Shown piece after piece: positions 3,526-19,911 of a stretch of DNA of 64,000 nucleotides. Source of the stretch: Candidatus Borrarchaeum weybense (GTDB lineage: Archaea; Asgardarchaeota; Sifarchaeia; Borrarchaeales; Borrarchaeaceae); contig JAHQJS010000006.1 in the NCBI GenBank assembly GCA_019057385.1, positions 549,038 through 613,037 of the forward strand. Direction: 5' to 3'. The stretch's first letter is position 1; each line of letters opens with the position of its first letter. Under the pieces are notes generated by a model. The model did no database searches, had not been told where the DNA came from, and saw only the letters and a program-made list of their open reading frames with translations. Both the position numbers and the translations under genes were made by a program.

Positions 3526-4785
3526 ATGGCAGATAACCCTAAAAAAGAAGAGAAGGATGAACTTGAGGAGAATGAGTCTAGTTTTGTTATGCTCTCCAAT
3601 TCGCTTGCTCAGATATTCAAAGATTTTCATGATAACCAAGTAACACTTACAAAAGAGCATGACGCTCTAACTAAAGATGTCTCGTCTCTTGATAAAAATT
3701 ATGCGAGCCTTTCAAAGGATATTACAAAATTGAATAAGGATGTTCTTGATAGTTTAAAAGAACTTAAAAAAAGTACTGAGACGGATGCAAAGAAATCAAT
3801 TGAAAGTCTTGAAGCACTAAATGAGCTAATCAGCAATGTTACTTCAACAATTGAAGCTAAACTTGAAGATACAAGCAATAGTAGTTTACAGGCGCTAGAA
3901 GTTAATAAGGAAGAACTTATTCAAAATATAGGGATATTAAAAGAGTTTATTTCCAGCAATGTTGAAACTATGATTACTGAAACAAAGAATACAAAAGAAA
4001 TTGTTCAAGAGCAGATTGATGCGTTGCCAACTTCCGTAGATGAAGTTCTACAACAAATGAAACAAGATTATTCAGCTAGATTTGAAAAGCTTGAAAAAGA
4101 CTTTGCCGAAGTAATGACACCTCTAAATGAAAGAGTTGATAATATAAAGAGTACACAGGAAACATTGACGGAACATGTTACAGATTTACATGCTGAATTA
4201 GCTAAGTCAGTTACTGAGAACAAAGAAACTTTTGTTGAAAAGTTTAATACCCAATCTGAAATTATAACAGAAATGAGTCAGAATTCTACCGAAAAACTAG
4301 GAGTAATTGGTTCAGAAGTTGAAAAACTGAAGATCGCGTACTTTGATAGTGTGATTGGACAATTCGATGGTCTCTCAAAACGCATAGGTGAACTGGAGAC
4401 AGCAATTAATGAACTAAATAAACGGGATACGACGCCTCCCACAGAGCTTATGAGTCGCTTGGAAGCAATTGAAAGAATAATTTTACCAAGAAGTGACTTT
4501 GAGAATAATATCGAGGCACTAACCAAGAACCTCTCTAAACAATTAAGTGCCATAAAAGTTGCAATGATCCGCGCATTTCCGGAAATAGAGGGTAAAAAAG
4601 AGGACGTAGTTGAGGAAGACGAAGAGGAAACAGAAGAAGAGGAAACAGAAGGAGAAGAGGAAACAGGAGAAGAGGAAACAGAAGGAGAAGAGGAAACAGA
4701 AGGAGAAGAGGAAACAGAAGGAGAAGAGGAAACAGAAGACACTCCTACAAAAACACGACGTGGCAGATCAAGAAGAACTAGTTAA
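3526..4785 (+). CDS. Long coiled-coil protein with an acidic repeat tail and a basic C-terminus
   Basis: About 340 aa of heptad-rich helix, then (EEETEG)n, then TKTRRGRSRRTS. Confidence 0.8.
   Translation: MADNPKKEEKDELEENESSFVMLSNSLAQIFKDFHDNQVTLTKEHDALTKDVSSLDKNYASLSKDITKLNKDVLDSLKELKKSTETDAKKSIESLEALNELISNVTSTIEAKLEDTSNSSLQALEVNKEELIQNIGILKEFISSNVETMITETKNTKEIVQEQIDALPTSVDEVLQQMKQDYSARFEKLEKDFAEVMTPLNERVDNIKSTQETLTEHVTDLHAELAKSVTENKETFVEKFNTQSEIITEMSQNSTEKLGVIGSEVEKLKIAYFDSVIGQFDGLSKRIGELETAINELNKRDTTPPTELMSRLEAIERIILPRSDFENNIEALTKNLSKQLSAIKVAMIRAFPEIEGKKEDVVEEDEEETEEEETEGEEETGEEETEGEEETEGEEETEGEEETEDTPTKTRRGRSRRTS
4621..4737 (+). repeat. Coding tandem repeat: 7 units of 15/18 bp (GAAGAGGAAACAGAA[GGA])
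   Basis: Read directly from the sequence; encodes EEETE(G). Confidence 0.95.
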
Positions 4786-4822
4786 TCTTGAAGTCAAAGA
4801 TTTTATTTAGGCAAGAATAGAA

Positions 4823-4873
4823 GTCAATTACCCCTCCCTGACGGAAGGGGTCTTCTCGCTGATATCAAATAAA
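4823..4873 (-). mobile_element. IS605-derived single-hairpin mini-element, family B
   Basis: GTCAATTACCCCTCCCTGACGGAAGGGGTCTTCTCGCTGATATCAAATAA, similar to the reverse complement of 34759-34807. Confidence 0.7.
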
Positions 4874-5089
4874 TTCTAAGAATTTACTCTTCATTATTTT
4901 TTATTGCTTAGCTGAAAAAGAGATTCCCTTAGGTGCAGAACGGTACTACAGTATTTAGAAACTTTGAGAATTATGATGATAGATCTTTAACATTTCAGGT
5001 GTATCGACATTTAAGTTTAAAAAGGCAACTTACTACACATCTCAATTAAGGAATCTTATCACATGTAACAAACTTCAATCATATTCGAG

Positions 5090-5737
5090 GTGAATGATGT
5101 GATTATAACTAGCAAAAAAAACATTGAAGACATTTTAGAAATGTTAAAACCCTATAATAAGATTTTCGTGGGTGGCTGTGGCACTTGTGCAACAAGCTGT
5201 ATGACTGGTGGCGAAGAACAGGTCAATGAAATGGTTGAACTTCTTGGCGATCGCGCTGTTGCTGGCTATGTGTTTGAGGAACCTTGCGATATTAGGCTGG
5301 TCAAACGCGACTTGAAAGAAGTAAAAGATAAGATCGAAGAAGCAGAAGTTATTTTGGAACTTAGCTGTGGCGCAGGCGCTCAGGTTGTATCAGAGGCTAC
5401 TGAAAAATTTGTCTTGCCTGGTTGTGATACTATTTTTCTTGGCGAAACCATAAGGATCGGACGCTTCCAAGAACTGTGTAAGATGTGCGGTGAATGTGTA
5501 CTTCATGAAACTGGTACTATCTGTCCTCTAACTCGTTGCGCGAAAGGACTAATTAATGGTCCTTGCGGAGGTTATGCAGAAGGAAAATGTGAAGTCGGAA
5601 ACTACGAAAACGACTGTGCATGGTGTCTGATCTATGAACAACTCAAGAAATTTGATAGGCTTGATTTGTTTGTGAAACCGACGTTACCACGTGACTGGAG
5701 CATTAAATCATCACCACAAAAGATTATGTTGCGATGA
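5090..5737 (+). CDS. metV: Methylenetetrahydrofolate reductase Fe-S/Zn subunit (MetV-like); start may be GTG 5099
   Basis: GCGTCAT.C.TGG, CGAG.Q, C..CGEC...TG.ICP.TRCAKGL.NGPCGG...C.V.....CAW. Confidence 0.88.
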   Translation: MNDVIITSKKNIEDILEMLKPYNKIFVGGCGTCATSCMTGGEEQVNEMVELLGDRAVAGYVFEEPCDIRLVKRDLKEVKDKIEEAEVILELSCGAGAQVVSEATEKFVLPGCDTIFLGETIRIGRFQELCKMCGECVLHETGTICPLTRCAKGLINGPCGGYAEGKCEVGNYENDCAWCLIYEQLKKFDRLDLFVKPTLPRDWSIKSSPQKIMLR

Positions 5738-5747
5738 GGTGAAGAAA

Positions 5748-6686
5748 ATGAGAGAAGCATATAGCGAGTTAATGAAAAAAATAAATGCTGGGGAGTTCGT
5801 GTTCACGGGTGAACTTGAACCTGAAAAGACTACTGATCTACATGAGGTCATAGAGCAAGCAAGAGCACTTAAAGGTTATGTGACCGCCTGCAATGTAACT
5901 GATAATCCAAAATCATGTGCATACACATCTCCCTTAGCAGCTTCCTACATGGTTCAGAGGGACTCAGGAATGGAGGCAGTATATCAATGTACAGTCAGAG
6001 ACCGAAATAGACTTGCTTTAGTGTCTGATTTGCTTGCTGCAGGCTCTTTAGGTCTAAAAAACGTTCTCGCCTTGAGCGGCGACCATACTACTCTTGGTGA
6101 CAATCCTGGGGCGTTACCAGTCTATGATGTTGATTCACTTGGATTAGTGTATATGGCAAGAAAAATGGTCGTAGATGGGACTGACTTAGTAGGTCTTGAA
6201 ATAGAAAAACCACCAAAATTTAATATCGCCATGGCTGGAAATCCTAATGCTGATCCTCTAGAGCCAGAAGTGCTTAAGTGTGAAAGAAAAACACTTGGTC
6301 TTGGAGAATATGGGGCAGATTTCATACAGACCCAGGTCGTCTTTGAAATCGAAAAGGCAAAAACATGGCTTAAAGAGATTGAATATCTCAATACGCCGTG
6401 CATCATCGGGATTTTCCCCATAAAATCTTACGGCATGGCAAAATTCTTCAATACCGCAATCCCTGGTGTTTCAGTACCTGATTTCCTAATGGAAATGTTT
6501 AAAGAGGCTAAGAAAACCGAAGACAAACAGAAGAAAAAAGAAAAGTATCTAGAGATCAATATCGAATATTTCACAGATTTTTGCAGAGAGATCTACAAAA
6601 CAACCAAAGCCGCGGGTATCCACATCATGGCAGTCAACTACGTCCAGTGCACACCGCCGCTTGTTGAAGCAGTATTAAAAGCTTAA
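5748..6686 (+). CDS. metF: Methylenetetrahydrofolate reductase
   Basis: NVTDNP, RDRNR.AL..DL, NVLALSGDH, GADFIQTQ, GIHIM. ATG 5748 follows a GAGGTGA RBS. Confidence 0.9.
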   Translation: MREAYSELMKKINAGEFVFTGELEPEKTTDLHEVIEQARALKGYVTACNVTDNPKSCAYTSPLAASYMVQRDSGMEAVYQCTVRDRNRLALVSDLLAAGSLGLKNVLALSGDHTTLGDNPGALPVYDVDSLGLVYMARKMVVDGTDLVGLEIEKPPKFNIAMAGNPNADPLEPEVLKCERKTLGLGEYGADFIQTQVVFEIEKAKTWLKEIEYLNTPCIIGIFPIKSYGMAKFFNTAIPGVSVPDFLMEMFKEAKKTEDKQKKKEKYLEINIEYFTDFCREIYKTTKAAGIHIMAVNYVQCTPPLVEAVLKA

Positions 6687-8680: not shown

Positions 8681-10060
8681 TCATTTTTTCACAATTATTA
8701 GGTCTCTTGGCTTAGTAACAGAACCCACGAAGAATATATTTTTTCGTATGAATTTCTTCTCTTCCTGAATTTCTCCTTTAATCCAATGACTGGCTAGCAT
8801 CTTGTTAATGACTCTTTTCAGCTGTTCTTCGCTGAAAACATTCGCCATTAATTCATTTAAATAGATCTGATGCTCTTGCTCTCTTGATAATTGCTTAAGA
8901 ATTTTTCTTATAATTTGTTCTTCGTCTGAATTCAAAGAGTACAAAAAATCTTCCAACAACTCTTTTTCGTTTACTACTTCCACGTTTATGCCTTCACGAG
9001 ATAACTGTTGAACAAGATTTCTGACAAAACTTGCGGATACGTTGTATTTCTTTGCTGTTTTAGAGAGCAGATATCGCCCCTTCTTTTTCAGCAGTTGTTC
9101 TTTGATTTTCGGCTTCGCGAAGTATTCCAATGTTCTCGCAATGAGACGCCTGGTTTCTTTTTGTGTGGTTTTACGTTTTAGTTTAGTCAATTTTGAAATG
9201 ATGTCCTTTTCCATATGAGGATAACTCTCGTAAATATCAATAACATACGCATACGCCAGTTCTCTTATTCTTTTTTCTTCGTCTTTAAAAAGCTCAAGAA
9301 TGAGAGGGGCAAATTCATCAACTTTTTCATTTTGCTTCTGAAGGATTATATTGATACAATTCATGGCAGAGAGTCTTACTTCAAAAAATTTCTCATTTAA
9401 TCCACTCTTTACCATGGGGAGGACGTCCTCTTTTAAAATATCTCTTGACCATAGTTGGCAAAATGCCCAAAGCCCTCCTTTTCTCATCCAAAAATCATCG
9501 GATTCCAATGCCTTTTTAAGTAACTTTTGCGCTTCATTTAAGTCCTCATCATTTTGCTGGAGATAATCAACAATTGCTCCAATTGTAAAGTATCGGGTCC
9601 AACTATCTTCGTTCTCCATTTGTTTGGCTAGAAGTTGAAAATCCGAGATACCCTCTTCGTCTTCTTGCATATATTGGGTTCTTAAAAGATCAAAAAACTT
9701 CTCCGCCGCTATATGAGGAAGATATGGGCTTTGAGATCCAATAGTTCCAAGCGCATAGAGAGCATTTTCTTGAACCTCTGCATATTTATCATTTAGGCTG
9801 GTTAAGAGCTTAGGAACCGCTATTTTAACCAGATTAGGCTCTTGTAAACCAATATCTCCCAGAACCCTTGCGATTGTAGCCCTTATGTAACTGTCATCAT
9901 CATTTAGAGTTTCTACGAGTTCTGGTATAACCTCCTTAATTTTAAGAGGATCCTCTTTTCCTATTTTTCCAATAGTCTGGGCAGAAATTCGTCGTTTTCC
10001 AACATCTTCATCAGAAAGTCCACTTAATAGTTCCTCAACATCACTTTTCAATTGATACAA
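8681..10060 (-). CDS. HEAT-repeat protein with C-terminal winged-helix-like domain(s)
   Basis: Repeated L.D....VR..A...LG units; C-terminal HWIKGEIQ wing-like motif. Confidence 0.8.
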   Translation of the reverse strand: MYQLKSDVEELLSGLSDEDVGKRRISAQTIGKIGKEDPLKIKEVIPELVETLNDDDSYIRATIARVLGDIGLQEPNLVKIAVPKLLTSLNDKYAEVQENALYALGTIGSQSPYLPHIAAEKFFDLLRTQYMQEDEEGISDFQLLAKQMENEDSWTRYFTIGAIVDYLQQNDEDLNEAQKLLKKALESDDFWMRKGGLWAFCQLWSRDILKEDVLPMVKSGLNEKFFEVRLSAMNCINIILQKQNEKVDEFAPLILELFKDEEKRIRELAYAYVIDIYESYPHMEKDIISKLTKLKRKTTQKETRRLIARTLEYFAKPKIKEQLLKKKGRYLLSKTAKKYNVSASFVRNLVQQLSREGINVEVVNEKELLEDFLYSLNSDEEQIIRKILKQLSREQEHQIYLNELMANVFSEEQLKRVINKMLASHWIKGEIQEEKKFIRKNIFFVGSVTKPRDLIIVKK

Positions 10061-10187
10061 CGTCCCTTGGCAAATTTTAAGTTTACATCACTCTACTTGA
10101 TAGGTAGATTTTCATTAGATCCTATGGTAAGTTAATTAGATTTACTTTTTTCTATTAAATTTAGTAAGTTATTCTTAAGGTGATAGG

Positions 10188-10432
10188 ATGAATATTTCAC
10201 GGGAGAAGATTCCGCAATTTCAGGAAAGGGAAGGTATTGCTCAAGACTTGAGCAAAGCATGGGAAAATCATTCAGATTTTTTGAAAAGATTCCCTTTTAG
10301 AAAAAATCCTGATTCCACCTAAGAATGACTAAAGAGAAACTTGGGAAGACAGGCTCTGAAGATTTTTTCTTTTATTGGCTGCAATACCCCCTAGGTTGGC
10401 TTGGGTTTTATACTGTTTGGGAAGCTCTGTGA
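10188..10432 (+). pseudogene. Frameshifted fragment resembling the N-terminal region of McrB-like/restriction proteins
   Basis: RBS AGGTGA plus ATG. Reads ...DFLKRFPFRKNPDST*, then in a shifted frame MTKEKLGKTGSEDFFFYWLQYPLGWLG. The F..RFP / FYWL..LG pattern is recognised from memory. Confidence 0.4.
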
Positions 10433-10475
10433 AAGATAATAGCGGGAAAAAGATTTTAGCGAAGATAAAGAAGAG

Positions 10476-11972
10476 TTAAATAACCTTTCTTAACCAATTG
10501 GTGAGATTGAAGAAATCTACGGCGTGCACATTCTTGTATTTTCTCACTAATGGGGTATATTTTGTCACGACACATGCAAATACTTTATATGTTTCTCTTT
10601 CACCGCTTATTGTGAGTTCTTCCTTAAATTTTTCAAAGTTATTTTTGAAAAATTCAACACGTTCTCGTTGTTTCAACATTTGATCTAGAAGTCTCTTTTT
10701 TTGCAGCAATTCCTGTTCTATGAGTGTCCATCCAGATATCGAAGATGGTGAAATGTCCCAATATTTTGCTTCCGCTAATACAATAGTCTTTTCGGTTTCT
10801 TTTATGGCAATTGCATCATACTCAGGACTATCTCTCGAAATTTTAACTGGTTTATCGGGAACGCTGTATCCATTTTCCGATAATAACTCTCTTACACGTT
10901 GCTCAAAGACCTTGGCGGCTTGTTGCTTTTTTTGTGCTATTGACTGTGAGGGATCATTCACATTTTCATCGTTTAAACCAAGAAGATGAAACAAAAGAAA
11001 TAGTATTGTACTAGGGTCGCAAAGGATTTGGTCTCCTTCTATTAGAACCAAAATTGGTGCCCTCGCTTTTGAAACCATATATTCGCGTAAAAAGGCATCT
11101 ATATCTAATCCATATTTTTCATAATTGAGTAAGTAACTTTTTATTCCATTTACCGTCCATTTACTCCTATTGGAAAAAAATAATCCAAGTAGCGCCGCTA
11201 TGTCTGCACTTGAAACATCATATTTAACTTGCTGTGCTGTGCGGTAATATAGACACAAAGCATATTTCGTGCGTATAATGTGTTCAAAAAATTGAACGAA
11301 GTATTTTTCAAGTTCCATGCCTTGTTCCAATTGAATATCCTCTCTTACTTGTTGATCTATTTCTGAATATCTAAATACGTCCTCAGTTATTCCAATAGAA
11401 CTACTAATAAGCCCCCAATTTCTAAGCATTAAAAATAAAGCATCCAAATACTTTATTTGAAAAACCTCATTGTCTGAGACCCTGATTAAACGACGTCTGT
11501 TTTCAAGGTCATCGATAAAATTTAATCTAGTCACATAATAGCTATATTCTTGTAATAAAGACTCAAAGTCTGGATTGGTATTGGAACGACCAATCGATGG
11601 AGAAATTGAATTGAGATCTATAAACATTTGATTTGTTGTGAAGAACTCATTTAGTATCATTCCTTTTCCTGCAAAAAATCCATCTATGAGTTTTTTACGA
11701 TAGGAAAAAATAAGAGTTTTCAGTATAGTCTCATTAAATTCTTTCATTTTGGCTAACAGGCTATTTTTCAGTTCATCGATTTCATTTTTTAACTTTTGTG
11801 CTCCTTTAACATTATAAAATTCAATTCCAACAGGAAAAAGGATGCATTTCGGATTTACACAAATTTCTTCTTTTGTGTTGAGTCCTAAATACAGTAAATG
11901 TTTACATTCTGTACATAGATAATCCGATATGGTCTCCATGATTTTATGCCATGGGTAAAACTCACTCACCAT
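10476..11972 (-). CDS. Protein with an N-terminal Zn finger and a C-terminal PD-(D/E)XK nuclease domain
   Basis: CTEC...CVNPKC at the N-terminus; FEQRV...EYDAIAI.....IVLAEAK at the C-terminus. Confidence 0.75.
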   Translation of the reverse strand: MVSEFYPWHKIMETISDYLCTECKHLLYLGLNTKEEICVNPKCILFPVGIEFYNVKGAQKLKNEIDELKNSLLAKMKEFNETILKTLIFSYRKKLIDGFFAGKGMILNEFFTTNQMFIDLNSISPSIGRSNTNPDFESLLQEYSYYVTRLNFIDDLENRRRLIRVSDNEVFQIKYLDALFLMLRNWGLISSSIGITEDVFRYSEIDQQVREDIQLEQGMELEKYFVQFFEHIIRTKYALCLYYRTAQQVKYDVSSADIAALLGLFFSNRSKWTVNGIKSYLLNYEKYGLDIDAFLREYMVSKARAPILVLIEGDQILCDPSTILFLLFHLLGLNDENVNDPSQSIAQKKQQAAKVFEQRVRELLSENGYSVPDKPVKISRDSPEYDAIAIKETEKTIVLAEAKYWDISPSSISGWTLIEQELLQKKRLLDQMLKQRERVEFFKNNFEKFKEELTISGERETYKVFACVVTKYTPLVRKYKNVHAVDFFNLTNWLRKVI

Positions 11973-12397
11973 ATTTCAACATCCAAATTAAAAATGATAA
12001 TCTAGATTTCCATTAGTATATTCGTAATTGACTAGTAATATCGGTTTTTTTGTTTTCATTTTTTACTTGAAAGATTGAGTTTCATGTATAGACGATTGAT
12101 AACACTATAGAACAAAGATTTGTCGATTAATCTCGCTGCCTTTAAAGATCTTTATGAAACTATTTTTTTCTTGTTTCTTCTTCTGTATCTGACCATATCT
12201 TCCTAAAACATTCAAACGGATGGATAAAGGTTTTATGCACTTTTTTGTCATAGTTATCATTAGATTGAGGAGCAATAAAAGTAAAACAGCATTCCAGAAA
12301 AACGAGGATCAAAACAATGAGTAATCACCTAATGAACGTAAGCAAAAACTTGAACAATGAAAAACGGAAGAAATCCGGATAATTTTGTAAAATAATG

Positions 12398-13105
12398 CTA
12401 GATCTTTACAATATTCATCTCTCTTTTTCTATATATTTTCTTTTTCTCATATCTAAAAAACATTCCATATATAATAGAGCTTGCCACCAAAATAACAACT
12501 ATGATGATAATCATCCATAGAAGTGAAACGTAATCTGAGATCCACAACCAGTAAAGACTAAGAAACACCAAGATCAAACCCCAGAAGCGTCGTCTAAACC
12601 AAATCAAAAACCGTATTTTATGGCGTTCGATGTATGATTTTAAGAAGGTATGAATGCCGAACGTACTATCTCTTTGATAACTACTCATTTTGGTAATCCT
12701 TTTTTCAATACCTCGAACACGGGCATAAGCTATATCATCAAGACGCTTTGTTGTATAATGCACACCGAATAACCATATGGAATAAAGAAATATCGAGGCC
12801 AAAGCATCAACTAAATGAGTCTTATTCCCATTGCTTTTGATTAAAATTTCACTGAAAGTTTCACTAACAATAAGAAAGGCGGCAGCTACTAATATCGTTC
12901 CTACTACAAGCGTGATATTCTCCCTGCGCTCTATTTCATTATTTGTGCATTCATAATCTTTCAATAATACATCGATTTCGATATTCTGATTTTCATTAAA
13001 ATGATACTCGAATAAACTTGGTTTTCCAAACTCAAGTATCACGATATAGATCATTGAAAGAACAAATCCAATTACTGAAATCACAAATGTCCCCAAATCA
13101 GACAC
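12398..13105 (-). CDS. Hypothetical multi-pass membrane protein
   Basis: About five hydrophobic segments; GTG start after GGGGGA. Confidence 0.7.
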   Translation of the reverse strand: MSDLGTFVISVIGFVLSMIYIVILEFGKPSLFEYHFNENQNIEIDVLLKDYECTNNEIERRENITLVVGTILVAAAFLIVSETFSEILIKSNGNKTHLVDALASIFLYSIWLFGVHYTTKRLDDIAYARVRGIEKRITKMSSYQRDSTFGIHTFLKSYIERHKIRFLIWFRRRFWGLILVFLSLYWLWISDYVSLLWMIIIIVVILVASSIIYGMFFRYEKKKIYRKREMNIVKI

Positions 13106-13182
13106 AGAATATCCCCCAGCCTATTAATGGCATTTGTCTAAAATAAGTCTGCTTGTAATAAAAAAAACTTAGTATCTTTTAA

Positions 13183-13329
13183 TTAGAGTGCGTTTTCTTT
13201 TAACCATAGCCGGATAGCTTCTTCAACGGCTTTACTTAAATAACCTCTTCTAAGACCGAATTTTTTCACTCCTTTTTCACGTAATTGTTGTTCAAGGTCA
13301 TCTGGTATGGACACGCTAATACTTCCCAT
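13183..13329 (-). CDS. Ribbon-helix-helix (CopG-like) DNA-binding protein
   Basis: MGSISVSIPDDLEQQLR...GYLSKAVEEAIRLWL. ATG 13329 follows an AAGGTGAT RBS. Confidence 0.85.
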   Translation of the reverse strand: MGSISVSIPDDLEQQLREKGVKKFGLRRGYLSKAVEEAIRLWLKENAL

Positions 13330-13516
13330 GCTATCACCTTGTGGACCTTTTACAGGTAGCCTTTTCATGTTTCACATATACTTTATACTATAAAACAAAC
13401 ATTCTTTTCCTTTAAAAGTATTATTATTCCACACAAAATATATAAGATAAAAGATATATGTTATAATAGATTTCTGGCAAACTAAGAGATGCTAGAAAAA
13501 TCGCGAGGTTGTAAAC

Positions 13517-14350
13517 ATGAAACAAACAAAAAAACAGATCGTGATTCGTGCCTATACACCCATAGCTAAACCTCTCAATGCGTCTATTCAAAAAAATGCA
13601 ACTATGCTTCTCCTCGGCGAAATTCCCTATGAGAATGGGTCAAAAGTATTCAATACTAAACTTTATTACATCAAAGGTGTACGTGGGATGCTGAGACATG
13701 CTTGTATGAAGTTAGCTCAGGCTTGCGGTATTGAAGTGTGTCATAGCAGTGAAAAAACGGAACTCAAAGACGGAACTAAACTTATTTCTTCGGGTTTTCA
13801 TCCGCTTGGTGCATGCAATCCTCCGTGTATTCTCAGGCGCCTTTTTGGTACCTTCCGCGAAGAGTCCTCGATTTCTGTCTTGGTTGATCCTATCGCCTCT
13901 ATCAGGCATAAAGAATATACTACTGAGGTAGTTGTTCAAAAAGTTCATATCTCCAGCGAGAATAGGATTGCCCTTGCCTATGATCGAACTCCCATTCAAG
14001 ATTTTCGTGAAAGCTATTTCAGTGGTTATTTTAGCTTCTGTATTGACGTAACCACTTTAACTGATGATGAAATCAAGTTTCTCATGGAATCACTGCTCTA
14101 CATTGAGATACTTGGTGGTGGCAAAAACGCGGGTTATGGGCGTGTCAAAATTCTGGATTTCGAAGTCCAGAAGATTGGTATCGTAAGAAACATCGAGAGA
14201 GATAATGGCGCCTACAAAATTAGTGAAAAAACTGAAGTGCAACCAATACTGCTTGAAAACATCGAGGAGTGGAGGACTGCATATATGGGAGAAAATTTGG
14301 CAGCGGTCGAACAAGAACAAATCTCTGCCCTAGTTAGTGATAAAAAATGA
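13517..14350 (+). CDS. Cas7-group (Csm3-like) RAMP protein
   Basis: Strand + TP, KGVRGMLRH helix, C..H..C..C Zn site before LFG, ENRIAL, and the G-rich loop LGGGKNAGYGRV. Confidence 0.85.
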   Translation: MKQTKKQIVIRAYTPIAKPLNASIQKNATMLLLGEIPYENGSKVFNTKLYYIKGVRGMLRHACMKLAQACGIEVCHSSEKTELKDGTKLISSGFHPLGACNPPCILRRLFGTFREESSISVLVDPIASIRHKEYTTEVVVQKVHISSENRIALAYDRTPIQDFRESYFSGYFSFCIDVTTLTDDEIKFLMESLLYIEILGGGKNAGYGRVKILDFEVQKIGIVRNIERDNGAYKISEKTEVQPILLENIEEWRTAYMGENLAAVEQEQISALVSDKK

Positions 14351-15150
14351 CAAAAAACTGGATAAAATTATCGGGTATAACTAAAACACCTGTTGTAAGC
14401 AAGAGAAAACGTTTTTTTCATAAATACGGTGTAATTACTATTAATGGTCGTCCTAGAGCATTTGGTAAACTTACAAAAGGAGAGAAACGCGCTCCTATGA
14501 CATTTAGAGCTAGATATGGAACAGTAGAGTTCGTTGTTCCACAGTCTAAACTTGAGCAAGCATTCACTGTTGATACCATCGGGAGATATACCCATGAAGG
14601 AATGGGGCAAATTGTCTGGAGAAGTGTGAAGCACCTCCAAAAAAAGCCCCTCTACGCTCCAAGAAAAATTAAGATTCGTAAAATGCTTCCCAAACTCTCA
14701 GATGCACAGAAAAATCTACTAAAAGCCTTTCTTTTACATGATTTCGTGCATACCGAAAAGCATCGAAGTAAAATCTACAATGAGATTGACATAATTGATG
14801 AAGAAGTTTACAAATTAGCAAAAAATCATCATAATTACAATTTTGACGAAAGAGAATTGCCTCTCCTCTCTACCCTTCACTATTATGATCGCCTTTCCGC
14901 GATGATTTCTCGAAAATTCAGATGGTCTGCCTCCTCGCGTTATCGTGTGAATGTTCAAAAGGAAATAGATTTCGATATGCTAAAAAGAGAGATAGAATCA
15001 CGCCAATATTCTCTTTGTGCCCTTTATGGTTATGTGTACAAATCTTGTGTACTTAACAAAATCAATGAGGCGCTAAAATTTGGTTTCTCTTCTTTGAAAA
15101 ACCATCTCTTATTAATGGTTAATCTCTATATTGATGACTTTCATAGGTGA
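14347..15150 (+). CDS. Miniature (Cas5-like) RAMP fused to a Cas10-type permuted HD nuclease
   Basis: The first ~92 aa carry KTP and the G-loop IGRYTHEGMGQI. Then LLHDFVH...NHH...YDRLSA and a late SLKNH. The start overlaps the cas7-like stop (ATGA). Confidence 0.7.
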   Translation: MTKNWIKLSGITKTPVVSKRKRFFHKYGVITINGRPRAFGKLTKGEKRAPMTFRARYGTVEFVVPQSKLEQAFTVDTIGRYTHEGMGQIVWRSVKHLQKKPLYAPRKIKIRKMLPKLSDAQKNLLKAFLLHDFVHTEKHRSKIYNEIDIIDEEVYKLAKNHHNYNFDERELPLLSTLHYYDRLSAMISRKFRWSASSRYRVNVQKEIDFDMLKREIESRQYSLCALYGYVYKSCVLNKINEALKFGFSSLKNHLLLMVNLYIDDFHR

Positions 15151-15164
15151 GCCCATATGCTTCA

Positions 15165-15320
15165 AATCATGATATTGGTATTCCTCTTTGCAGGCAAATA
15201 CACTGGATACAAGGCGGAATGTTCTTCGCACCACGCGGAGAACACGTTCTTGTGCATGAGACTGAACCCGAGAGGTCCCACGCCTCAGATGAAGGGAATG
15301 AATGACAGGCAGAGGACGAG
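15165..15320 (+). ncRNA. Candidate structured RNA downstream of the RAMP-HD operon
   Basis: About 53% GC over 15181-15320 (my count) in an AT-rich genome. Long hairpin 15208-15253 with G-U pairs, a second hairpin 15257-15287, and a possible closing stem TATTCCT/GGGAATG. Confidence 0.5.
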
Positions 15321-16292
15321 AAAAGTGATAAGCCTTAGTAACTTGTTTATTATCTTATCTGCTGTTCGTGTGTCTTCTGGATTTTCTTCAACGACATCTT
15401 GGTTCAACTCAAATGATGGCAAATTTGCAAGTACAGCTACGATACTTATTATACTTTGTTTTGCGACCCAAAGATTAGATCCTCCACTTAATAAGACTAC
15501 GAGGTTATCATCACAGCTATCTTTAGCTGCTTGTGTGATTATTTTAGCCATTTCAGGAAATGCAGAGGTCGTCAAGTTGAAACCGCCATAATCCGCGTGA
15601 TGGGAGTCATGCCCAAAATTCCACAAAATCATTTCAGGCCCGAATTTTTCGGCAAGGAATGGAGTTAGTTCTTGTAAAACTCTCAGAAAGCCTTTATCAG
15701 AGATATTTGAGGGCAGAGGGATGTCAAATTTATTGGATTTTATTAAATCGTCACTAAATGAATAGCCATCGGAAAAAAAGTTTAGATGTACCACATTTTC
15801 GTCACTCTCAAAAATATTCCGTGTGCCATCTCCTGGATGGGGATCTGTGTCGATTATCATGAATCGTTTGACATTGTAAGTGTTTCTAAGATGTTGAATA
15901 AGTAACGCAGAATTGTTAATGTAGCAAAAACCCCAATATGAATTACGACTTGCATGATGCCCAGCAGTTCCAGTAAAAACAAAGGAATTTTTTACTTTCT
16001 TCGTCCAGACCATTTCTCCTGCCAGTAAAGCTCCTCCCGCTGACAGCCGTGCGGCCTCATAACATTCATCTTCTTTGACTCTTGCAAGATGTTGCGTAGT
16101 ATGTATTTGAAGAATTAATTCTTCTTTTACTCTCTCAGGTGTTTGAATAACTACTCTGTTGTCTCGGTCGTTTTCTTTTAGAAAATCCATTAAAGAATTG
16201 TATGCGGGTGCTAATCTTTCTCGTAAAAAGAGATTTCCATGCGTTGCAAACTTCGGGTGATAAATCAAGCACGTCTGGGGCATTTTAATCAA
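15285..16292 (-). CDS. Histone deacetylase / AcuC-family protein (likely start ATG 16283)
   Basis: GHHA....WGFCYINN, IDTDPHPGDGT, FGHDSH..D, SGGS. Confidence 0.92.
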   Translation of the reverse strand: MIKMPQTCLIYHPKFATHGNLFLRERLAPAYNSLMDFLKENDRDNRVVIQTPERVKEELILQIHTTQHLARVKEDECYEAARLSAGGALLAGEMVWTKKVKNSFVFTGTAGHHASRNSYWGFCYINNSALLIQHLRNTYNVKRFMIIDTDPHPGDGTRNIFESDENVVHLNFFSDGYSFSDDLIKSNKFDIPLPSNISDKGFLRVLQELTPFLAEKFGPEMILWNFGHDSHHADYGGFNLTTSAFPEMAKIITQAAKDSCDDNLVVLLSGGSNLWVAKQSIISIVAVLANLPSFELNQDVVEENPEDTRTADKIINKLLRLITFLVLCLSFIPFI

Positions 16293-16349
16293 AATGGTAT
16301 GTAAGGCAACTCCTTCCTAAAAAATCTAACTGCTAGGAGAGGGTGACCT

Positions 16350-17036
16350 CTAATCTTCGATTAGCCTTTTTGTCATCAACATCTTTTCTAAAAGTTTGAT
16401 ATCTAGTTGTCTCGGAATTACTTTATTTTTTATAGCATACACCATCACACTATCATCAATTTCTTGCGCAACCAATACTCCGTAAACTTCATCGACTAAA
16501 ATGTAACTAGAACTCAAATCTACTCGACCTCTTTCTTTTATACTCTTCACATAATCCAGTATTTGATCCACGTCCTCTTTTTTAGGTTTTGTTTTCTTAA
16601 GTTCGATAACAGCCAGTTTGTTCATGGGATCTTGGGCTAAGATATCAATCCTCTTACCTTCTGATAGAGTGACTTGTCGACCCAGCACTCGATAATTCTC
16701 ATAAATAATCCCTGTCAATAAGGTTGGGTATTCTGCTAGAACTTTCTCTATATCTAATTCTGTGAAACCTTCAGTCTTGATATTGAAAGGTTCAAGATTT
16801 ATCTTATAAATTCCTTTCAACTGTTTTGCTCTTTTTATATATTCCCTTGCATGCTCATAACATTCATCGTAGAGTTTACTGTCCACTCCCATTTCCATTA
16901 TTTGAGTCAATGTTTCTGCAGCCTGCAAATAAAGTCTAATAGCTGTTTTTTTGTCGCTTTTTTTGTCGACCTCGATTGCTTTTTCTGCTGTTGATTTTGC
17001 TGTCTTTAACAGCTTTGAGATTTGGTTTTGAGACAT
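16350..17036 (-). CDS. MIT domain fused to a NucS/EndoMS-like PD-(D/E)XK endonuclease domain
   Basis: A...AEKAIEVD......AIRLY..AAE.L...YIKRAKQLK (MIT); E.DIE...GRQ....GKRIDILAQD....AVIELK...QILDY (NucS C-terminal type). Confidence 0.8.
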   Translation of the reverse strand: MSQNQISKLLKTAKSTAEKAIEVDKKSDKKTAIRLYLQAAETLTQIMEMGVDSKLYDECYEHAREYIKRAKQLKGIYKINLEPFNIKTEGFTELDIEKVLAEYPTLLTGIIYENYRVLGRQVTLSEGKRIDILAQDPMNKLAVIELKKTKPKKEDVDQILDYVKSIKERGRVDLSSSYILVDEVYGVLVAQEIDDSVMVYAIKNKVIPRQLDIKLLEKMLMTKRLIED

Positions 17037-17149
17037 TTCAATCAGTTACTTTCTAGTAGGAAAGAAGGTGATCTTTATATTTTTTGGAAGTTAATTTGTA
17101 AGAACAGGAAAAGAAGTTTTTTCAAATAGCTATTCTAGGTTGGATTCTT

Positions 17150-18775
17150 ATGAATCACGATTTTATAACAAGGAAAGTTGCATTGACTCATGGAAATGTA
17201 ATTACTATGGACGAGACGAATCCGAGGGCTCAAGCGGTTCTTGTGATAGATGATAAAATCTTCAAGGTTGGATCCGATGCGGAGATCGAAAGACTGATTG
17301 ATGGAGATACGGAGGAACTGAATCTTGAAGGGAAGACATTGATTCCAGGATTTGTAGACTGTCATGCGCATCCTATAAACTTTGGACTTGCACTCATGGC
17401 AGTTGACTGCAAGACGCCATCTGTGAATTCCATTAAGGAGATAGTGGACAGGATTCAATTGACAGCAGAAGATAAATCAGAGGGAGAATGGATAATTGGC
17501 AGAGGTTATGACGATTTCAAACTGTCTGAGAAGAGACATCCTAACAGATGGGATCTAGATGAGGCTGCACCTAACAATCCTGTCATAATTACTCGATTCT
17601 GTGAGCATATTTCAGTTGTTAATAGCCTAGCTCTAGAACTTGCAGGTATATCAAAGGATACAAAGGATCCTGAAGGAGGGCAGATTGATAGAGATCCTAA
17701 GACTGGTAAACCAACTGGAATTTTGCGGTGGGGTGCTAAGGAATTGGTATTACGAATTATTCCTCCTCCTAGCGTAGCACAATTGAGACAAGCTATAATT
17801 TTGGCTTCCGAGCAATTTCTGGCCAAAGGAGTAACTTCAGTGTCCGAAGCCGGCGAAATAAATGCCTCGGCTATGAAAGCATATCAGACTGCAATATGGG
17901 ATGACGACGTACCCCTTAGGGTTAACTTGATGATGCCAATGAGCATGCTTGGTTTTTTACGGAAACTTGGTTTTTCAACAGGTTTTGGCAATGATAAACT
18001 TCGAATAGGACCAATAAAGATCATAGCTGATGGATCAACATCAGGAAGAACTGCTGCCCTATCTGAACCTTATGAAGATTCACCTGAGAATATCGGCATG
18101 ATGTATCTTAGTCAGAATGAGTTAAATAGCATAATTCTCACCGCTCATAGCGCAGGATTCCAAGTAGGTGTTCATGCAATCGGAGATAGAGCTATTTCAG
18201 CAGTTATCGACGCAATTGAGTTAGCCTTGGAACAATTCCCAAAAACTGATCATAGACATCGAATAGAACATTGTGGAATAAATAGTTCAACCATTGTAAC
18301 AAGACTAAAGAAACTGGGCATTATACCTGTTCCGCAACCCATATTTCTTTATGGTGAGGGTGAGAGTTACAGGGCAGGCTTGGGCGAAGACAGGGTAAAA
18401 TGGGCGTATCCCCTAAAGTCGTATATCGAGAGTGGAATCACGACACCTATGAGTTCAGATTGCCCCTGTACTTCTGGATCCGAGTTAATAAGCCCCCTTC
18501 TGGGTATTTATGTAGCCATTACTAGGATGACCGATGCCGGTAGAGAAATCGGAGCTGAACAAAAAATTGGAATAAAAGATGCCCTCAAGGCATATACCCT
18601 TAATAGTGCTTATGTAACCTTCGAAGAAGGTGTAAAAGGATCCATCGAGCCAGGTAAACTCGCTGATTTTGTTGTACTATCGGATGATCCTTTTAATGTA
18701 AGAGATAATGAAATTAAGGACATATACGTGGAAATGACTATAATAGGTGGCAAGACTGTTTATGAGAAACCATAA
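17150..18775 (+). CDS. YtcJ-like amidohydrolase (Amidohydro_3)
   Basis: PGFVDCHAH, KIIADGS.SGRTA, HAIGDRA, RIEH, SSDCP, GSIEPGKLAD. Confidence 0.93.
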   Translation: MNHDFITRKVALTHGNVITMDETNPRAQAVLVIDDKIFKVGSDAEIERLIDGDTEELNLEGKTLIPGFVDCHAHPINFGLALMAVDCKTPSVNSIKEIVDRIQLTAEDKSEGEWIIGRGYDDFKLSEKRHPNRWDLDEAAPNNPVIITRFCEHISVVNSLALELAGISKDTKDPEGGQIDRDPKTGKPTGILRWGAKELVLRIIPPPSVAQLRQAIILASEQFLAKGVTSVSEAGEINASAMKAYQTAIWDDDVPLRVNLMMPMSMLGFLRKLGFSTGFGNDKLRIGPIKIIADGSTSGRTAALSEPYEDSPENIGMMYLSQNELNSIILTAHSAGFQVGVHAIGDRAISAVIDAIELALEQFPKTDHRHRIEHCGINSSTIVTRLKKLGIIPVPQPIFLYGEGESYRAGLGEDRVKWAYPLKSYIESGITTPMSSDCPCTSGSELISPLLGIYVAITRMTDAGREIGAEQKIGIKDALKAYTLNSAYVTFEEGVKGSIEPGKLADFVVLSDDPFNVRDNEIKDIYVEMTIIGGKTVYEKP

Positions 18776-18882
18776 AAAGTTTTTATCGTCGTATATCTCA
18801 CTCTAAGTCCTATTTATTTTGATGGCACGCACAAAGGAAAAGTTTAAAGGCATTAAATTTACATATTTATATTATAGGTACT

Positions 18883-19911
18883 TTGTTTTTTCTAATAGAG
18901 CTGACTGAAATGTTTAGAGAAGATATACGAAAACGTTCAGAATACGGAGATGAATTCGTTCGATTGTTTATTAAAGATGGTCTTCAAGATCGTCTACTAC
19001 CTTTTTCAAAAAGTGCCTTAGAACTGTTTACAAAGTATTGCTTTGAAGAATGCAATGACTCAGACCGTCTTAAGTGTATTTTACGCCCCTGCACTGAGAT
19101 TATTGACGGAAATAATCGCCGGCTTTTAGATCTCTATATTGATTCAGGTATTAAGAAAAATGAGCTCCCTCTTTTCTGTTACAGCCAACGACAACAAATG
19201 ATAACTAAAATTCTTACTGGAAAAGAACGAAGACGAGGAAAAAATATTGACAAGAAGGTTTTTTTAGAAGATTTCCTCGATATATTATTTCCAAAAGCAG
19301 CAAAACCATTGAAAAGGGCATTACAGAGAAAACAAACGTTCATCAAAACATTCTTAGGAAGACTTGATGAAATGGATGAATTCACGCTATATTCTTCTCA
19401 AGACGATTACCTATTATTCTCAAATAACCATGACATTTTTTTTATGGACTTAAATCGAAGCATTGTAACATTGAATCCTGGTGAACACAGAATAAATGAA
19501 ATGACCGAATTAACAGGCTTCACTAAATTCTTTTCTCACAAACATGATCAACAGGCTGAATTAATTGAAAATGGATTTGGATGGAACCATATTCAATTTC
19601 AAGTTTATGAATCTAAAGAAGATTTTACTAAAGAAGAAAAATCTCGACTTCAAAAATTTCTAATAGAACTCCGTAAAGACGACACAGGCCTCTTTTCCGC
19701 ATTTTATGTTGCAGATAAGACGATACAGATCAATACAGACGTTTACTATCATAATTATGATCCTGAAGTGTATTTGACTTATAATGACAAAAAATTGCTA
19801 GTCAGATCTTTAGAGGAAATATTTTCCTCAATGAAGCGCCTTCAGGACGATATTGCACAAAAACTCATTGAAAAATCTGAGGATGTTACTAAGGAAACCT
19901 CTTCCGAATAA
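18883..19911 (+). CDS. Hypothetical protein (start may be ATG 18910)
   Basis: Long ORF; no motif recognised. Confidence 0.7.
   Translation: MFFLIELTEMFREDIRKRSEYGDEFVRLFIKDGLQDRLLPFSKSALELFTKYCFEECNDSDRLKCILRPCTEIIDGNNRRLLDLYIDSGIKKNELPLFCYSQRQQMITKILTGKERRRGKNIDKKVFLEDFLDILFPKAAKPLKRALQRKQTFIKTFLGRLDEMDEFTLYSSQDDYLLFSNNHDIFFMDLNRSIVTLNPGEHRINEMTELTGFTKFFSHKHDQQAELIENGFGWNHIQFQVYESKEDFTKEEKSRLQKFLIELRKDDTGLFSAFYVADKTIQINTDVYYHNYDPEVYLTYNDKKLLVRSLEEIFSSMKRLQDDIAQKLIEKSEDVTKETSSE

Follow-up and report, generated by a model that had tools for sequence, protein, structure and literature searches.

An array-less RAMP cassette with a covarying structured RNA in Candidatus Borrarchaeum weybense, a probable reduced member of a multi-copy ARAMP-type family

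We analysed a stretch of 64,000 nucleotides (nt) from the Asgard archaeon Candidatus Borrarchaeum weybense (GenBank assembly GCA_019057385.1, contig JAHQJS010000006.1, positions 549,038–613,037, forward strand), here called the window, in which position 1 is the first letter. The host genome (G000) comprises 4.18 Mb on 8 contigs (prefix C); compared loci and genomes are labelled L0xx and G0xx, and P0144 is a metagenomic protein. The window contains a compact cassette that consists of a gene for a small ribbon–helix–helix (RHH)-type protein, two genes for RAMP proteins, named A and B, and a structured RNA element. With a probability of roughly 0.6, this locus is a reduced, RHH-controlled copy, devoid of a helicase–Cas1 gene, of a multi-copy, array-less Asgard cassette of the ARAMP type, which derives from type III/VII CRISPR systems and works as an RNA–protein nuclease. 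Within this reading, the identity of the parts and of the family can be assigned with high confidence, while the RNA–protein nuclease mechanism has about even odds.

The product of gene A matches the Pfam family RAMPs (PF03787) at E=5e-7, above the curated cut-off, and the PADLOC profile of Csm3 at E=3e-8. An AlphaFold2 (AF2) model was built from 30 homologues (pLDDT 83), and its best structural match in a Foldseek search is a Cas7 chain of type VII (8yhe_F, E=4e-9), followed by Csm3 (E=3e-7) and other Cas7 chains. The residues K53, G54 and G57, the cluster C75, H76, C100 and C104, and the glycines G200 and G206 are invariant in the 30 homologues. An earlier inspection of the letters of the window by a model (the sequence-only reading) had named these motifs as Csm3/Cas7 hallmarks, which is borne out by the profile, model and conservation data. 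Taken together, the profile matches and the predicted structure show that gene A encodes a Cas7-fold protein.

Gene B has no match to a Pfam or NCBIfam family, and a Foldseek search of its AF2 model (pLDDT 86) against the Protein Data Bank (PDB) returned nothing at E<=0.001, with weak RAMP matches. An exhaustive structural search (VIA-align) splits the model into two domains. Residues 118–267 correspond to the N-terminal HD domain of Csm1/Cas10 (6ifk_A residues 2–215, Z 8.4, root mean square deviation 3.4, 136 aligned residues; second match 6mua_A, Z 7.2). Residues 1–105 form a RAMP domain in the model, which is Cas5-like or Cas6-like by near-equal scores: Cas5-type RAMPs (Csf3/Cas5, Csm4 and Cmr3) are matched at Z 7.2–5.8 and Cas6 at Z 6.9–6.2, and the PADLOC profile Cas5_IIId is matched at E=5e-4. 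Across 32 homologues of B, the residues H131, D132, H139, K142, H161, H162 and D181 are invariant, as are the G-loop glycines G85/G87. The modelled fold and these residues show that B unites a mini Cas5/Cas6-like RAMP with a Cas10-type HD domain whose catalytic residues are intact; a RAMP–HD combination had been proposed for the second gene. Structure prediction, the suggested test of the RAMP assignment, thus returned a Cas7/Csm3 fold for A and a RAMP domain for B. The B family is small: at 50% identity it numbers 136 representatives in a set of 1.84 billion proteins, and no relative of Cas10 size was found in this set, the longest having 536 amino acids (aa).

A and B are neighbours at every locus. 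A model of the A+B complex reached an ipSAE of 0.64 (0.63, 0.68 and 0.64 in three runs), compared with 0.00 for the best of three controls, a result to which likeness to solved Cas5–Cas7 complexes may contribute. The ipSAE mark applied was passed by 58 of 80 solved complexes and by 2 of 110 mismatched pairs. The runs have at least 68% of contacts in common with a partner pLDDT of at least 74, and they place the RAMP domain of B (residues 8–96, G-loop included) on the KGxRG and 116–125 regions of A. Furthermore, P0144 (536 aa) is a natural single-chain A–B fusion with an A-like part at residues 25–243 (hhalign E=3e-30) and a B-like part at residues 242–514 (hmmsearch E=3e-42). The predicted complex and the natural fusion support binding of A to B and agree with the earlier proposal that the two proteins act as a pair.

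The DNA downstream of gene B is GC-richer than its surroundings and contains the RNA element, which measures ~135 nt, or ~185 nt with its leader. A search with nhmmer found 24 strong copies in the host genome (about 25 in all), and ~20 of them immediately follow an A or B gene in the same orientation. In most modules, one RNA copy lies between A and B and one, at times two, after B; in every intact pair of the host genome an RNA follows B, the last RAMP gene. The same position was found in the cassettes checked elsewhere, on Borrarchaeum, Promethearchaeota and Sifarchaeum contigs and in the orthologous cassettes L062 and L065. An alignment of 28 copies revealed a fold with a 10-bp hairpin (P1), a long-range helix, a second hairpin (P4) and a 3-bp pseudoknot in which the loop of the second hairpin pairs with the 3' tail. 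In P1, 8 of 10 pairs change on both sides in a compensatory manner, and the middle pair of the pseudoknot (columns 86/139) is CG in 13 sequences and GC in 13. Overall, 95.6% of the alignment cells pair, compared with 41–51% when the partners are slid by 1–3 columns, and none of 500 shuffles reached the observed covariation score. The covariance model (R1) scores the window copy (15198–15336) at 146.7 bits (E=3e-31); a search of window 15151–15336 against Rfam returned no family, even up to E 10. Several of the copies that follow B carry a TTTATATA box ~40 nt upstream of P1, which suggests that these RNAs may have their own promoter.

Of 151 genomes sampled across the phylum, 6 contain the RNA, always in multiple copies: all five genomes of the family of the window (the host included) and the one genome of a sister family. 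B is present in five of these six genomes, and the remaining B-positive genomes of the sample contain a divergent, Heimdall-type pair. On the Heimdall-type loci and the divergent copy of the host genome, R1 gave two weak matches (E 0.5–1), both directly after gene B. In the Heimdallarchaeota loci L006–L025, a region conserved at the nucleotide level lies 0–210 nt past the conserved part of B, beneath long C-terminal ‘extensions’ of B; by eye, it has the motifs CATGAG, a GAGAGG..CCTC hairpin and AGGCAGAG in common with the Loki-type scaffold, and the B reading frame there may simply run into an RNA gene. The genome of the sister family (G005, 2.0 Mb, 300 contigs) has at least 21 RNA copies, many of them at contig ends, and B as fragments only; either assembly is interrupted at the repeat, or the RNA has multiplied alone in this genome.

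The cassette of the window belongs to a multi-copy family. The host genome contains about 10 A+B pairs, in addition to one solo A, one B fragment and one divergent pair, and the copies in sequences close to this genome are 64–80% identical to the window proteins. Six pairs are immediately preceded, in the same orientation, by an open reading frame (ORF) of 1323–1363 aa, split in one copy. Its N-terminal part is assigned to Hel308-like SF2 helicases by Pfam (DEAD, Helicase_C) and NCBIfam (Hel308-type, E ~1e-31 to 1e-38), and its C-terminal ~270 residues have a sub-cut-off match to TIGR00287 (cas1; E=4.7e-8, 32.5 bits). Across the genome, five such helicase fusions match TIGR00287 (E 1e-6 to 2.5e-8, 28–34 bits), each directly upstream of A; a phmmer search of the C-terminal half against PDB sequences returned no match. 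The earlier picture of a minimal self-contained unit is not supported, since the genome holds about 10 such paralogous modules, the window copy among them, and helicase–Cas1 fusions accompany six. The arrangement of RHH, two genes and 3' RNA, whose conservation the sequence-only reading had suggested testing, recurs as the RHH type in at least five loci; most copies carry helicase–Cas1 instead. That the window is array-less was correct, as it contains no CRISPR-like array or tandem repeat, and its contig yields no Cas1 match. Both occur on another contig of the genome, where the sole canonical CRISPR array (C4:148434–154573) has at least 49 repeats containing TTTCAATCCTTATTAC and lies with a genuine cas1 gene (265 bits). 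The named homologues of A and B, with both genes on the same contigs, come only from Promethearchaeota, Borrarchaeum, Sifarchaeia, Hodarchaeales, Thorarchaeota and Heimdallarchaeota, as well as from one metagenome-assembled genome titled Bathyarchaeia (L016). These homologues form array-less cassettes at many sites, as opposed to the constant embedding in complete cas operons with arrays that the sequence-only reading had named as grounds for regarding the locus as a decayed fragment.

Several copies in the host genome are altered. The B gene of the copy at C4:524314 is split by a frameshift (C4:523231–524033), and a 1337-aa ORF upstream of this copy, tried as a helicase candidate, was rejected, since it encodes a NACHT/DUF11 protein (C4:525653–529666). 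Natural deletion derivatives comprise a solo A with one RNA (C3:64937–65852), the product that recombination between the two direct RNA copies would leave, a solo RNA joined to an RHH fragment (C4:562664–562980) and a B fragment with an RNA (C7:767896–768367). Just upstream of the helicase-less module C4:1002322 lies a 508-aa ORF (C4:999984–1001510; L059), which, judging by its N-terminal sequence, may be TnpB/OrfB-like. A 48-nt palindrome with a 13-bp stem (L052 4365–4412, equal to C4:747517–747564), located upstream of one helicase–Cas1 copy, was considered as a left end and discarded, as none of its 4 genome copies lies at another module; it recurs many times at 85–98% identity in genomes of the same genus.

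The window copy represents the helicase-less subtype, with a divergent RHH gene ahead of A. In orthologous cassettes, A and B are separated by a spacer of ~290 nt that holds the first RNA copy (L065 2675–2801; L062 2327–2446). This spacer is missing in the window, where positions 14329/14334 correspond to L065 2599/2892. The ATGA overlap of the A stop and the B start at 14347 was confirmed in the ORF list, and contigs of three sequencing runs, one of them from a different study with 10 base differences, bridge the junction, so that the overlap is not an assembly artefact. Because the orthologous cassettes keep the spacer, this overlap is the product of a secondary deletion specific to the window and not a family trait. 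Of the suggestion that the module is highly reduced or ancestral-like, the first half holds and the second is not supported, as its compactness arose secondarily by loss of the spacer. Compared with orthologues at other sites, dN/dS is 0.19 for A, 0.21–0.31 for B and 0.17–0.35 for RHH; judged by these ratios, all three window genes are under purifying selection, which argues against a dead remnant.

Comparison of related sequences indicates that the cassette is or was mobile: close relatives carry it at different sites, and its right-hand border falls at the 3' end of the RNA. By blastn, window 13162–14334 and 14338–15337 match L062, and 13193–14329 and 14334–15331 match L065, whereas the flanks differ among all three. 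In L065 (86–91% identical DNA), window 15806–17038 corresponds to positions 4–1255 and window 17033–19351 to positions 3894–6200, with ACATTTT at both cassette junctions; in L062 the cassette lies among yet other neighbour genes. In two genomes of the same genus (G002 and G004), the HEAT-repeat gene region 8745–10074 directly abuts the HDAC gene region 15335–16331, and for this reason window 10075–15334 is read as an insertion. The left 3 kb of this island are unique in the genome and lie outside the conserved unit. At its right side, the HDAC gene (15285–16292, minus strand) has acquired a chimeric C-terminus, in which a hydrophobic tail of 16 aa, read antisense to the RNA element, stands in place of the native end seen in relatives (...KLLKDVT or ...KLLKEVP). 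In every version, the right edge of the cassette equals the scaffold 3' end within ~6 nt.

The RHH protein matches Pfam RHH_6 at E=1.5e-3, below the cut-off, and its gene is found in a matching position at no fewer than five other loci, which upholds the reported divergent RHH gene and extends it beyond the window. In L062, L065 and L066, A is preceded by a divergently oriented RHH orthologue with 84–89% identity; in L002 and L003, an RHH gene (84–85% identical) precedes the pair on the opposite strand, and the divergent pair of the host genome has one at C5:80274–80411 that is 50% identical to that of the window. The sequence between RHH and A, with its AT-rich palindrome, is strongly conserved among the window, L062, L065, L003 and L002, from which we infer a putative operator role.

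Among known systems, the cassette is closest to ARAMP, an array-less group of Asgard archaea that published summaries describe as having diverged Cas5 and Cas7 proteins closest to type III, in most cases with a distinct Cas1, an unexplained function and an ‘enigmatic’ mechanism; its usual nuclease partners there are HNH and PD-(D/E)xK proteins (PMC8730458, PMC12669027). As far as these summaries go, the likeness includes the Asgard host, a diverged Cas7 (by Pfam and Foldseek) and the lack of an adjacent array; the RAMP domain of B, which matches Cas5 and Cas6 about equally, is a candidate for the Cas5 homologue. The likeness extends to Cas1 through the helicase–Cas1 fusion in six of ~10 sibling copies, while the window copy has RHH instead. 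By this match to the summaries, the protein core probably belongs to a known kind, the ARAMP type, and the earlier pointer to Asgard RAMP modules is supported (PMC8730458). The differences are that the nuclease here is a Cas10-type HD domain fused to a Cas5-like subunit, and that a conserved structured RNA is an integral part, which the ARAMP summaries do not mention (PMC8730458, PMC12669027). In the literature covered, in which summaries represent ARAMP, we found no description of an HD domain on a Cas5-like subunit, of an RHH-type, Cas1-less subtype, of a covarying RNA or of evidence on boundaries and mobility; a search for helicase–Cas1 or an ARAMP RNA yielded nothing further.

Other systems resemble single parts. 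A is similar to the Cas7/Csm3 proteins of type VII (8yhe, 9j9e) and of type III-A/D Csm complexes, the HD domain of B to Csm1/Cas10, and its RAMP domain to Cas5/Csm4/Cmr3; by contrast, the cassette has no array, Cas14 beta-CASP protein, Cas10 Palm/cyclase, Cas11 or Cas6, and its RNA would be a pseudoknotted 135-nt scaffold instead of a repeat-derived 8-nt tag with a spacer. Specifically, the Palm/cyclase-containing large subunit of type III is absent, as B has 267 aa and HD only, and the scaffold is not arranged in the repeat–spacer layout from which a repeat-derived CRISPR RNA would arise. The Cas14 nuclease (beta-CASP/metallo-beta-lactamase) of type VII was not found among seven island and flank proteins by Pfam. 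In subtype IV-C, the large subunit carries a C-terminal Cas10-related HD domain (PMC8730458); compared by description, it is likewise a reduced class 1 effector with a Cas10-type HD on a small non-Cas10 subunit beside Cas7 and Cas5, whereas here the HD sits on the Cas5-like RAMP itself, in an Asgard host and without a Csf1-like large subunit or an array. HRAMP, also compared by description, is array-less with diverged Cas5 and Cas7 homologues and nucleases, and differs in its haloarchaeal host group and in that the summary of it reports no Cas1 or RNA (PMC8730458). The TnpB elements of the IS200/IS605 group with their re/omega RNA offer a parallel in that a mobile unit carries, on its right side, a structured scaffold RNA whose terminus is the boundary of the element. 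The aCas1–TnpB elements of Asgard archaea add a second one, as the Asgard Cas1 was proposed to act as their transposase (PMC10691335). Unlike in TnpB, the effector here is a class 1-type pair of Cas7 and Cas5-HD and not RuvC, and a guide read from the flank is hypothetical.

In the proposed mechanism, A and B would assemble on the cassette RNA into a small class 1-like ribonucleoprotein. The RAMP domain of B would cap the scaffold, A would bind single-stranded RNA, and the HD domain would be the catalytic part that cuts nucleic acid, with the RNA acting as scaffold and possibly as guide. RHH would repress the divergent promoter, and the Cas1-less copies would be moved in trans by the helicase–Cas1 of sibling copies. 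Such a complex could serve either the defence of the cell or the spread and retention of the element itself.

Several observations weigh against this interpretation. ARAMP may be non-programmable, as is reportedly stated in the abstract of Makarova et al. (CRISPR J, 2020). The scaffold shows no variable, guide-like segment in the alignment of copies, and a search of the host genome for its antisense targets gave chance-level 13–17-nt matches alone. No RNA-seq run is listed with the window DNA, so that transcription of the cassette, the ends of its RNA and any guide at the 3' end are predictions. As the single-sequence folding energy of the window RNA is unremarkable (z = -1.46), the case for the RNA rests on covariation and not on stability; the segment previously flagged as foldable and GC-rich is a conserved, covarying RNA with a strong covariance-model score, and ordinary in its folding energy. 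The Cas1-like match reaches 32.5 bits, below the curated cut-off of 71.7. The window copy, minus one RNA copy and without Cas1, may work differently from full copies. Concerning mobility, inspection of the junctions revealed no clear terminal (inverted) repeats, and the candidate target-site duplications, ACATTTT in L065 and perhaps ACTTG in the window, are ambiguous. Finally, the comparison with G004:C54 points to decay by deletion and not to clean excision; this contig was tried as an empty site and rejected, since the 3' half of the scaffold is still present there as the remnant of a deletion. Likewise, no excised or empty-site form was found in DNA contigs of four runs, in which the joints seen are paralogue cross-mapping.

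The parallel with TnpB leads to a variant in which the family is a Cas1-mobilised transposon with a class 1-type effector (Cas7 and Cas5-HD) and a right-end scaffold RNA. Transcription into the flank would then supply a guide, either for TnpB-like homing and retention or for target choice by the helicase–Cas1 integrase, with the window copy as a non-autonomous member under RHH control that is mobilised in trans; we regard this as a rather unlikely scenario. The RNA might instead be an end or regulatory element, such as the right-end site of a Cas1-like integrase, a stabiliser or terminator in a 3' untranslated region (UTR) or a 5'-UTR operator of B, with A+B as a non-programmable nuclease. This would account for an RNA that stops exactly at the cassette boundary and lacks a guide-like segment, for internal copies just upstream of the B start with a conserved 3' flank, for solo copies and remnants (C4:562853 beside the RHH fragment, C4:1262868, C6:210637 and C7:108108) and for the multitude of RNA copies in G005 beside mere fragments of B. 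It fits less well with the covariation and the pseudoknot, which argue for a selected RNA fold instead of a DNA site, with the separate TTTATATA box of several post-B copies, with the RNA-binding nature of RAMP proteins as a family, and with the retention of the RNA in a window copy that has no Cas1 of its own to recognise it. On balance, we doubt this explanation.

A toxin–antitoxin-like or abortive-infection addiction unit, which the sequence-only reading had also entertained, would have the HD nuclease (B with A) as toxin, the RNA neutralising it as in type III toxin–antitoxin systems, RHH as autoregulator and a selfish mode of spread. The divergent coupling of RHH to the operon in the helicase-less subtype, repeated RNA units on either side of the nuclease gene, many paralogous copies per genome and an intact HD site are what such a unit would show. 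In ToxIN-like systems, though, one expects tandem short repeats, and the window contains none: the RNA is one large pseudoknotted scaffold of ~135 nt, with copies separated by genes. No toxin family and no known toxin–antitoxin family was matched (the sole such match is AbiEi at E=0.14), most copies are tied to helicase–Cas1 and not to RHH, and the window copy tolerates the loss of one RNA copy, all of which makes this reading improbable. Least credible, and in our view very improbable, is the idea that the window copy is decaying from a full helicase–Cas1 ARAMP locus and no longer functions. The copy has no helicase–Cas1, a deletion of ~290 bp took one RNA copy, and other remnants exist in the genome (solo A with RNA at C3:64937, B fragment at C7:767999 and the frameshifted B at C4:523231–524033). 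Yet its three ORFs are intact with every invariant residue of A and B kept, dN/dS is low throughout (0.17–0.35), the RHH-type architecture occurs in five or more loci from several genomes, and the overlap form is present in three sequencing runs, including one of another study that differs at 10 bases.

If the preferred reading of a reduced ARAMP-type copy is correct, the RNA described here may turn out to be the partner that the published, unexplained array-less ARAMP systems have so far lacked. Catalogued since 2020, these have a mechanism that summaries call enigmatic (PMC8730458), which becomes testable with an RNA tied to every intact module of the host genome, an HD domain on a Cas5-like subunit and a moving cassette with RNA at its boundary. 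Should the RNA act as a guide, the two chains, with 544 aa in total, would form the smallest RNA-guided nuclease of the class 1 type and connect Cas1 elements with RNA guidance in the archaeal lineage nearest to eukaryotes. Should it not, the natural deletion series (full copies, RHH-type copies, the one-RNA window copy, solo A with RNA, and solo RNA) provides material for dissecting the parts. The features of the window are listed in Table 1.

Table 1. Cassette, island and associated features in the 64-kb window
Feature	Position	Strand	Basis or remark
RHH-type small DNA-binding protein, 61 aa, probable true start M14	13183..13368	-	divergent from gene A
Putative promoter/operator region between RHH and gene A	13369..13516	.	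AT-rich palindrome, ATATAT at 13438-13443 and 13454-13459
Gene A, Cas7/Csm3-like RAMP protein, 277 aa, conserved C-H-C-C site	13517..14350	+	ORF list, Pfam, PADLOC, AF2 model
Gene B, 267 aa	14347..15150	+	ATG overlaps TGA of gene A (ATGA at 14347-14350)
Gene B N-terminal mini-RAMP, aa 1-105, Cas5/Csm4/Cmr3/Cas6-like single RRM with G-loop	14347..14661	+	VIA-align
Gene B C-terminal Cas10-type HD nuclease domain, aa 118-267, metal-binding residues intact	14698..15150	+	VIA-align
Structured RNA element	15151..15336	+	leader 15151-15197 conserved; core scaffold 15198-15336
Conserved cassette unit RHH-A-B-RNA	13162..15337	.	blastn homology to cassettes at other sites
Inserted island: two unique cargo genes and RHH-A-B-RNA cassette	10075..15334	.	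versus two same-genus genomes (G002, G004)
Deletion scar, ~290 nt including first RNA copy missing between A and B	14330..14346	.	versus orthologous cassettes
Empty site between MIT-NucS and amidohydrolase genes; holds whole RHH-A-RNA-B-RNA cassette in L065	17033..17038	.	blastn

Besides the cassette, the island carries two co-inserted cargo genes, both unique in the genome and on the minus strand. The first (10476–11972) encodes a 498-aa protein with a Zn ribbon, a D...E-A-K motif and a weak DUF234 match, whose language-model look-alikes fall into NERD, Hjc and Upx-like clusters. The second (12398–13105) encodes a 235-aa membrane protein. Outside the island, the gene at 16350–17036 (minus strand), which adjoins the L065 cassette site, encodes an unusual 228-aa fusion in which a MIT domain (E=2e-9) precedes a NucS-C/PD-(D/E)xK nuclease domain (E=2e-8).

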